Translations under genes and position numbers: made by a program
Shown: piece after piece, positions 17,884-18,495 of the stretch
How positions within the stretch are numbered: position 1 is the first letter of the stretch
How the letters are laid out: each line of letters opens with the position of its first letter
Notes under the pieces: generated by a model
Told to the model about the DNA's origin: nothing
Databases searched by the model: none
What the model saw: only the letters and a program-made list of their open reading frames with translations
Source of the DNA: Escherichia phage RB49
DNA length: 64,000 nucleotides
Sequence record: NC_005066.1
Strand: one strand, 5' to 3'

Positions 17884-18086
17884 TTACATTTAGGACAATG
17901 CGGTTCTTTAATATAATACCCGTCTGTCTTTGGAACACTAACAGGAGCGGTTTTTATATTGTATTCAGTGAAACAACGAAAACAAGTTACGTTTTCTACA
18001 GACTGACGTTTCACCCAATCACCGGAATATAGATCATTTTTATTTGTCATATTCAACCACCACAATGTTAATGTCTGGAGTAGCAA
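17856..18086 (-). CDS. hypothetical zinc-ribbon-like protein (76 aa)
   Basis: CFRC...CPKCKC motif. Confidence 0.4.
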   Translation of the reverse strand: MLLQTLTLWWLNMTNKNDLYSGDWVKRQSVENVTCFRCFTEYNIKTAPVSVPKTDGYYIKEPHCPKCKCRLYWSHL

Positions 18087-18495
18087 TATTAATGATCTCT
18101 TCTACACATTCCCACTCAAGGCCACCGATACCGCAACCGATTTTAGGAATATAGAAAGGCTGTATAGCACCTTCAAAAACATCATTGAGAGCCTCAAATC
18201 CTTTCAGGATAGCACCATATTCAGCATTTGGACCCGGTCGGAATTGGGTATAGAGATTCACCCCGCACCAGTTATAACCATTAACTTGATGCGTCCAGAC
18301 ACTAAACCCACCCAGCTTTTCGACCTTACCGCGAGAAGTTTGCTTGTCAATCTCTAACGCTTGCGGGAACTCTTTCGCGATCTTCGCAGCAATACCAGCA
18401 CCCATAGTATGAAAACAATTACAACCATGAATTAAATGACCGTTTCCTTGTTTAAACAGGGCGATAAGATCGCCCTTTACAGTATCAATAATCAT
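18040..18495 (-). CDS. macro-domain protein (ADP-ribose binding/processing), putative
   Basis: 151 aa; GDL..HLIHGCNCFHTMGAGIAAKI resembles the macrodomain signature GDIT..VNAAN..GGGVdgAI; second Gly motif IPKIGCGIGG. Confidence 0.55.
   Translation of the reverse strand: MIIDTVKGDLIALFKQGNGHLIHGCNCFHTMGAGIAAKIAKEFPQALEIDKQTSRGKVEKLGGFSVWTHQVNGYNWCGVNLYTQFRPGPNAEYGAILKGFEALNDVFEGAIQPFYIPKIGCGIGGLEWECVEEIINIATPDINIVVVEYDK

Follow-up and report, generated by a model that had tools for sequence, protein, structure and literature searches.

A macrodomain protein of phage RB49, positional ortholog of T4 tk.4/adfM, and its probable part in countering DarTG2

What is the task of a small protein encoded on the minus strand of Escherichia phage RB49 (sequence record NC_005066.1), within a stretch of 64,000 nucleotides that is referred to here as the window? 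From the DNA letters alone, an original prediction had taken this protein to be a macrodomain and had proposed that it reverses ADP-ribosylation, for instance the modification placed on DNA by DarT-type toxins. The gene in question is:

18040..18495, minus strand: coding sequence of the macrodomain protein, ortholog of T4 tk.4/adfM (151 amino acids; ATG start; stop codon at 18040-18042).

The analysis identifies the protein as a macrodomain by sequence profile and predicted fold, places its gene as the counterpart of tk.4 of phage T4, and points to a probable role in countering the DarTG2 defence system. The gene is already known: it carries the annotation tk.4, the domain was reported in 2006, and a preprint has described the function of the T4 ortholog.

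The Pfam profile Macro (PF01661) matches the protein with 29.4 bits (E 8e-7; gathering cut-off 22 bits) over profile positions 1-118 of 118, and PHROG 335 ('phosphatase') matches it with an E-value of 7e-63. The nearest solved structures by sequence are those of the Mycobacterium tuberculosis DarG macrodomain, human TARG1/OARD1, BT1257 and SCO6735. When a family profile made from 70 sequences was compared with the PDB, BT1257 (best, E 2e-15), TARG1, SCO6735, DarG and Poa1p were retrieved with E-values of 2e-15 to 3e-11, and coronavirus nsp3 macrodomains only at about 4e-3. An AlphaFold2 model, built on 69 homologs that did not include the T4 sequence row, has a mean predicted local distance difference test (pLDDT) score of 97.1 and a predicted template modelling (pTM) score of 0.91. 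All top matches of this model in a Foldseek search of the PDB are macrodomains, with 192 matches at E <= 0.001 and template modelling (TM) scores of up to 0.78. TARG1 and DarG are found with E-values of 2e-11 to 7e-9 and TM scores of 0.76-0.78; TARG1 is the best match (E 2e-11, TM 0.76), both DarG macrodomains reach TM scores of 0.77-0.78 and BT1257 and SCO6735 reach 0.74-0.75, while Poa1p, next after TARG1 by E-value (1e-9), has lower TM scores of 0.68-0.71. This order of relatives agrees with that of the PDB profile search. By sequence profile and predicted fold, the protein is a macrodomain with a three-layer alpha/beta/alpha fold, which belongs to the ALC1-like class (TARG1, DarG, SCO6735 and Poa1p) and not to the MacroD, PARG or viral nsp3 types.

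The macrodomain identity is thus far above chance and is borne out by both computational checks that the original prediction had named, with significant macrodomain matches in the profile searches and a macrodomain fold in the structure prediction. The translation of 18040..18495, for which that prediction had given no strand, in the list of open reading frames (ORFs) includes GDL...HLIHGCNCFHTMGAGIAAKI and IPKIGCGIGGLEW, and the N-terminal segment and C-terminal glycine-rich motif to which attention had been drawn correspond to the family's two conserved loops for ligand binding. The suggestion that a protein this short may be a minimal macrodomain did not hold: a length of 151 amino acids is normal for the class, in which TARG1 chains have 146-160 and DarG macrodomain constructs 165 amino acids.

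The 5 kb around the gene are 97.5-98.5% identical to phages of the RB49/Phi1/GEC-3S type (Krischvirus, Straboviridae), and the protein itself is 100% identical to a protein of phage Whisky. The Phi1 record gives the gene the name tk.4 ('phosphatase', the label used for the family in RefSeq and PHROG) and places it between small ORFs downstream of tk on one side and vs, vs.1 and regB on the other. The same gene order, tk...tk.4-vs-vs.1-regB, is found in the window, in Phi1 and in T4, as judged from ORFs, annotation and tblastn searches with T4 tk, vs.1 and regB. Residues 1-150 of the window protein align to residues 1-152 of T4 Tk.4 with 44% identity (E 3e-45). Judged by synteny and gene context, the Krischvirus gene in the window is the positional ortholog of T4 tk.4/adfM. 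A match of tk.4 orthologs to the A1pp/macro domain was reported in 2006 (PMC1524935).

The function of the T4 gene has been approached with the transposon screen HIDEN-SEQ, in which only tk.4 was depleted on a host expressing DarTG2 (bioRxiv 10.1101/2025.11.20.689424). A clean T4 tk.4 knockout was sensitised to DarTG2, upon which the gene was renamed adfM (anti-DarT factor Macrodomain), and removal of ADP-ribose from DNA was proposed by the authors as its activity (bioRxiv 10.1101/2025.11.20.689424). The knockout phenotype fits the earlier observation that T4 without adfA and adfN (gp30.3) is still resistant to DarTG2, from which a further factor had been predicted (PMC11825919). A second phage macrodomain, gp104 of PhiKZ, which has independently been named AdfM, protects chimalliviruses against DarTG2 and, in vitro, removes thymidine-linked ADP-ribose from an oligonucleotide; its putative active-site residues are N23 and K78 (PMC13309987). 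The earlier proposal that the window protein counters DNA ADP-ribosylation of the DarT type therefore finds genetic backing in its syntenic T4 ortholog. We infer that the window protein counters DarTG2 as the T4 protein does, and that it does so by de-ADP-ribosylation of DNA.

The predicted active site can be placed on the DNA as follows:

18418..18429, minus strand: codons of H23-G24-C25-N26, the start of the first ADP-ribose-binding loop (from alignments; conserved in 70 homologs and in all groups formed by genomic context).
18244..18246, minus strand: codon of Q84, at the position of the catalytic lysine (from alignment; invariant in 70 of 70 homologs).
18112..18147, minus strand: codons of P117-W128 (IPKIGCGIGGLEW), the second glycine-rich ligand-binding loop (from PDB alignments and conservation).

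The first loop, H23-G24-C25-N26-C27...M31-G32-x-G34, and the second, P117-x-I119-G120-x-G122-x-x-G125, are invariant or nearly so in the 70 homologs; invariant residues are G24, N26, M31, G34, A36, D50, N80, Y82, Q84, P117, G120 and G122. H23-G24-C25-N26 aligns with H24-V25-C26-N27 of SCO6735 and with IHSCNC of Poa1p, and the H-x-C-N-C motif is common to the family, SCO6735, BT1257 and Poa1p. N26 aligns with N22 of DarG and with N23 of PhiKZ AdfM, whose N23A variant was the control mutant when de-ADP-ribosylation was assayed in vitro (PMC13309987). Q84, which lies in NLYTQF and is also kept in 84 of the 85 members of the family in the context comparison, stands opposite K84 of TARG1 (LITKK), the FPTKK of M. 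tuberculosis DarG and K78 of PhiKZ AdfM (FPTKD) in phmmer, hmmsearch and hhalign alignments. This is the position of K80 in Thermus aquaticus DarG, and BT1257 has NMIGQH there. With another family member, rather than the window protein, as query, the invariant glutamine aligns with that of NMIGQHGMK in SCO6735, chain residue 105, which corresponds to native Gln85 given the 20-residue tag offset that also reproduces the published Val25 and Lys89. SCO6735 has Gln85 in place of the catalytic lysine and loses its activity in the Q85A variant; the enzyme takes thymidine-linked ADP-ribose off DNA and confers protection against DarT (PMC9411070). By analogy, we infer a catalytic role for Q84 in the window protein. 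The second catalytic residue of TARG1, D125, corresponds to G124 in the window protein, as in DarG.

As far as these alignments go, AdfM of T-even phages is a Gln-type, SCO6735-like protein and AdfM of PhiKZ a Lys-type, DarG-like one, and the two fall on separate branches of the class, the same name having been given independently to T4 Tk.4 and PhiKZ gp104. PhiKZ gp104 is 26% identical to the window protein (hhalign probability 97%), and in a neighbour-joining tree (81 sequences, 148 columns) the whole family stands apart from it with 100% support. Since the two AdfM proteins are only distantly alike, the transfer of annotation between them needs care. Membership of the window protein among the DarG antitoxins was rejected. 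The NCBIfam model NF048014, which spans the macrodomain and the C-terminal DarT-binding domain and has an equivalog cut-off of 250 bits, gives 138 bits for PhiKZ gp104, 51 bits for the window protein (over model positions 2-141 of 338 only) and 30 bits for T4 Tk.4; the PADLOC DarG model gives the same picture, with 53 bits over positions 3-141 of 329 for the window protein. The C-terminal domain and the catalytic lysine are missing from the window protein, and no darT gene lies beside its gene, where the neighbours are vs and a small ORF, or is annotated anywhere in Phi1.

By analogy with these enzymes, it is probable, with room for doubt, that the window protein removes DarT2-placed ADP-ribose from phage DNA by Q84-type catalysis and in this way counters DarTG2. 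The substrate would be the ADP-ribose that the host toxin DarT2 attaches to thymidines of single-stranded phage DNA, and its ADP-ribose moiety would be bound in the cleft between the H23-G-C-N26/M31-G-x-G34 loop and the G120-x-G122-x-x-G125 loop. Q84 would position the distal ribose for attack by an activated water, probably following the route of SCO6735 and not the lysine route of DarG and TARG1. Hydrolysis of the C1''-N bond at the distal ribose would release ADP-ribose and restore the thymidine, which would allow phage replication to continue, and the enzyme would thus act as an orphan, antitoxin-like hydrolase.

Several points weigh against this reading. For T4, the evidence is purely genetic and stems from a preprint, and T4 is the phage in which the DarTG2 phenotype was seen. 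The orthology to tk.4 rests on synteny, because the window protein shares only 44% identity with T4 Tk.4 and 33% with Adpp, a related macrodomain of Vibrio phage Gary, and because the backbone support of the tree is 0-10%. The active-site columns are identical in family members of T-even-type loci and in those linked to the NARP1 pathway of Adpp, and substrate preference is not readable from the sequence. The match to the DarG model, at 51 bits against a cut-off of 250, is weak. Finally, catalytically dead SCO6735, DarG and TARG1 still inhibit DarT by binding, so that hydrolysis may not be the only mechanism (PMC9411070).

The alternative that survives best is based on Adpp (KNV71_gp137), which is encoded between Adps and Namat in phage Gary and is a phosphatase of ADP-ribose 1''-phosphate (ADPR-1''P) (bioRxiv 10.64898/2026.01.28.702374). 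The purified protein converts ADPR-1''P to ADP-ribose and NARP1-AP requires it to overcome aRES, a defence with RES domains (bioRxiv 10.64898/2026.01.28.702374). Gary Adpp has 33% identity with the window protein and 35% with T4 Tk.4. Homologs of the window protein are found by tblastn in about 2,730 of 50,697 phage records, and a search with a Ceto homolog, which has 88% identity to Gary Adpp, yields virtually the same set of some 2,700 records; on these comparisons, Adpp and Tk.4 are one sequence family. To compare contexts, 80 related viral loci were fetched and grouped by their neighbour genes. At least one T-even marker (tk, vs.1 or regB) lies within 4 kb in 26 members, including the window and the T4 locus, both Adps and Namat lie beside the macrodomain gene in six, and one of the two in a further two. 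The conserved ligand-binding and catalytic columns, including the glutamine, are identical across all three context groups; none of these columns holds a residue that separates NARP1-linked from T-even-type members, and the one difference is the length of the loop that follows Q84. Phylogeny was tried as an arbiter between the AdfM type and the Adpp type and gave no decision: NARP1-linked members occupy at least four separate places in the tree, at a backbone support of 0-10%. A tblastn search with Gary Adps and Namat found nothing in the 64 kb of the window and nothing in the whole genome of Phi1, and the same search finds these genes beside the macrodomain gene in the loci L009, L010, L011, L072, L079 and L086. 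In these loci the Tk.4-like gene lies inside or against the pair of Prs-like and Nampt-like genes (Adps/Namat; L009:3135-6149, L010:901-4474 and L011:3129-6159 for the first three), and the NARP1-linked lineages are unrelated phages, namely Vibrio Cetovirus and Thalassavirus, Acinetobacter Saclayvirus and metagenomic contigs.

It is unlikely that the window protein is mainly a phosphatase of the Adpp type, which would turn the ADPR-1''P produced by the RES-domain NADases of aRES into ADP-ribose, although the activity has been shown with purified Gary Adpp, a protein of the same family with identical conserved active-site columns. The family name 'phosphatase' in RefSeq and PHROG also agrees with this role, as does the HxCNC motif, which matches that of Poa1p, a known ADPR-1''P phosphatase. 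However, Adpp is useful only together with Adps and Namat, which rebuild nicotinamide adenine dinucleotide (NAD+), and as neither is found in the window or in Phi1, an ADPR-1''P phosphatase would feed nothing there, which favours an anti-DarT2 role. In addition, the only known phenotype of the positional ortholog T4 tk.4 is on DarTG2, and the linkage to NARP1 in at least four places of the tree argues for repeated recruitment and not for an ancestral role. A combination of both functions is possible, if rather doubtful: Tk.4/AdfM and Adpp may be one promiscuous ADP-ribose 1''-hydrolase, whose single site removes thymine in the case of DarT2-modified DNA and phosphate in the case of ADPR-1''P from aRES. 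If so, the window protein would have both activities, and the family would constitute a countermeasure against multiple defences whose role is set by genomic context (presence or absence of NARP1) and not by sequence.

It is improbable that the substrate to be degraded is another ADP-ribose derivative, either soluble or linked to RNA (for instance the Thoeris signal, O-acetyl-ADP-ribose or ADP-ribosylated RNA). TARG1-class enzymes are broad in their substrate range, as stated for TARG1 (PMC9411070), but no specific genetic or biochemical link exists for the family. Moreover, CmdTAC, an mRNA ADP-ribosyltransferase system, is reported to give a robust defence against T-even phages carrying tk.4 (PMC11618068), so that tk.4 evidently does not neutralise CmdTAC.

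Slightly less probable again is a role in reversing or tuning ADP-ribosylation by the phage's own ADP-ribosyltransferases (ARTs), Alt, ModB and ORF183. A dismissal of this role by an absence of ARTs failed, as the closely related Phi1 encodes modB, alt and the further ART ORF183, so that phage-made substrates would be present. The macrodomain gene adjoins no ART gene, however, and the T4 tk.4 phenotype is seen specifically when DarTG2 is present. The chemistry speaks against this role as well: Alt and Mod of T4 are arginine-specific ARTs, arginine-linked ADP-ribose is removed by hydrolases of the ARH/DraG type, and macrodomains are not known to cleave it. Both Thoeris and the regulation of the phage's own ARTs had been raised alongside DarT at the outset, and nothing in the analysis came out in their support.

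Least probable of all is that the protein acts against DarT2 mainly as a binder that blocks the toxin, and not by hydrolysis. Inactive SCO6735 Q85A, DarG K80A and TARG1 K84A keep their inhibition of DarT in vitro (PMC9411070), and ICP1 AdfB binds DarT directly to counter it (PMC11481870). Against this reading, the full set of residues for ligand binding and catalysis does not vary among diverse phages, which argues for selection for catalysis, and the C-terminal domain with which DarG binds DarT is absent from the protein; binding inhibition is possible as a contribution to the proposed removal of ADP-ribose from DNA, but would leave the invariant active site unexplained.

The distribution of the family adds to the history of the locus. 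In the tree, the window protein and two contig sequences with 67-70% identity stand beside the Straboviridae Tk.4 group, albeit with a bootstrap value of 10%. These nearest relatives are encoded on contigs of 84-139 kb (L012:6001-6447 and L013:6001-6453) without T-even neighbours, and close copies, likewise without T-even neighbours, are present in the Escherichia phages JLBYU08, ECML-10 and EduardKellenberger of about 137 kb. None of the other Straboviridae-type Tk.4 loci in the sample exceeds 53% identity to the window protein. These comparisons suggest that the macrodomain gene has been exchanged laterally between phage groups and replaced at the same locus.

The surroundings of the gene comprise these features:

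18504..18509, minus strand: Shine-Dalgarno-like GAGAGG, 8 nt before the macrodomain ATG (read from the sequence).
18511..18870, minus strand: vs, homolog of the valyl-tRNA synthetase modifier, upstream of the macrodomain gene (from the ORF list, the Phi1 annotation and the T4 locus).
18833-18861, minus strand: sigma-70-like promoter match TTGACA-17-TATGAT with extended TG, 11/12 (consensus match only).
19503..19531, minus strand: candidate sigma-70-type early promoter TTGACT-17-TATTAT, between regB and vs.1 (consensus match only).

On the coding strand, the stop codon TAA of vs (18513-18511) is followed by GAGAGG (18509-18504), 8 nt and the ATG of the macrodomain gene, which is a genuine gene with a GAGG ribosome-binding site 8 nt upstream. 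Its 3' end is overlapped by a small downstream ORF, as in Phi1, where tk.4 and ORF090 overlap by 11 nt; with the vs stop codon just upstream, this makes the gene part of a tightly packed minus-strand block. The vs gene is a member of the conserved block vs.1-vs-tk.4, which could be driven from the promoter match at 19503..19531. The match at 18833-18861, the best sigma-70-like one of the region and stronger than that at 19503..19531, lies within the 5' end of the vs coding sequence, and a transcript from it would miss most of the vs start and read into tk.4. The place of the macrodomain gene in the vs.1-vs-tk.4 block of the early-gene region, together with a sigma-70-like promoter match, suggests that it is expressed early. 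The vs.1 homolog (18878-19468, minus strand, 196 amino acids) has a signal-peptide-like N-terminal segment and a motif, AWQESS, resembling SLT lytic transglycosylases, which fits the weak match to Pfam SLT that was described for vs.1 orthologs in 2006 (PMC1524935). Directly downstream of the macrodomain gene, the small minus-strand ORFs 17641-17883 and 17856-18050 each have paired CxxC motifs (for example CRCVRC...CSNKGC and CFRC...CPKCKC) and look like small zinc-ribbon-like proteins in the position of tk.1-tk.3. ORFs on the plus strand that overlap the region (e.g. 17898..18032, and others within 18577..18891) were set aside as mechanical ORFs without support.

By ADP-ribosylating phage DNA, DarTG systems stop its replication, and orphan antitoxin-like hydrolases are the phages' response. 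In RB49-like phages the macrodomain arm of this response is present, and their relative Phi1 also carries the NADAR arm (gp30.3/AdfN) against DarTG1. In Phi1 (NC_009821; 9096-9599, 112891-115845 and 125616-126095), modB, alt, the extra ART ORF183 and a homolog of gp30.3 (AdfN, a NADAR anti-DarTG1 factor) are present, and from its gene content the lineage seems to carry both enzymatic anti-DarT arms. No gene 42 or glucosyltransferase genes are annotated in Phi1, and the lineage presumably has DNA without hydroxymethylation or glucosylation. As a marker of likely resistance to DarTG2, the macrodomain gene bears on phage therapy and on the prediction of host range. Beyond what the original prediction held, the gene has a name and a characterised counterpart in T4, its family includes Adpp, and a glutamine replaces the lysine of DarG. 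The remaining interest lies in this split between glutamine and lysine in the two AdfM proteins and in the union of AdfM and Adpp in one family, whose functions may be two faces of one enzyme; this is a modest biochemical question and not a new kind of system.

Among known systems, T4 Tk.4/AdfM is the closest counterpart, a stand-alone macrodomain of about 150 amino acids that is 44% identical over its full length, is encoded between the tk cluster and vs-vs.1-regB, and shares the motifs HGCNCFHTMG.G, NLYTQF.PGPN.EY and P.IG.GIG. T4 is, however, a Tequatrovirus and the window phage a Krischvirus, whose copy has its nearest relatives outside T-even loci. Gary Adpp belongs to the same family, with the same active-site columns, and both proteins are proposed to free ADP-ribose by cleaving the C1'' substituent, but Adpp is encoded between Adps and Namat, its product feeds the rebuilding of NAD+, and its loop after the glutamine is longer. 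SCO6735 (PDB 5e3b) and BT1257 (PDB 2fg1/2afc) are likewise ALC1-like, with H-x-C-N and a glutamine at the lysine position of DarG and TARG1, whereas they are cellular proteins, not viral ones, and share only about 23-25% identity with the window protein. In SCO6735 the glutamine is followed by a longer mobile loop, in which Lys89 and Lys94 aid DNA binding, whereas the loop of the window protein (Q84-F-R-P-G-P-N) is short. The DarG2 macrodomain (PDB 5m3i, 5m31/5m3e) has the same fold (TM 0.77-0.78) and the conserved asparagine, and shares with PhiKZ gp104 the task proposed here, the removal of DarT2's thymidine-linked ADP-ribose from DNA. Unlike the window family, these two have a catalytic lysine (K80 and K78, respectively) in place of the glutamine, and DarG has in addition a DarT-binding C-terminal domain and a neighbouring darT gene. 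Human TARG1/OARD1 (PDB 4j5r), the best Foldseek match, is 30% identical and of similar size, but its catalytic dyad K84/D125 corresponds to Q84/G124 in the window protein. Yeast Poa1p (PDB 6lfq) is also of similar size and has the HxCNC motif; TARG1 and Poa1p differ from the window protein in being eukaryotic enzymes with other physiological substrates.

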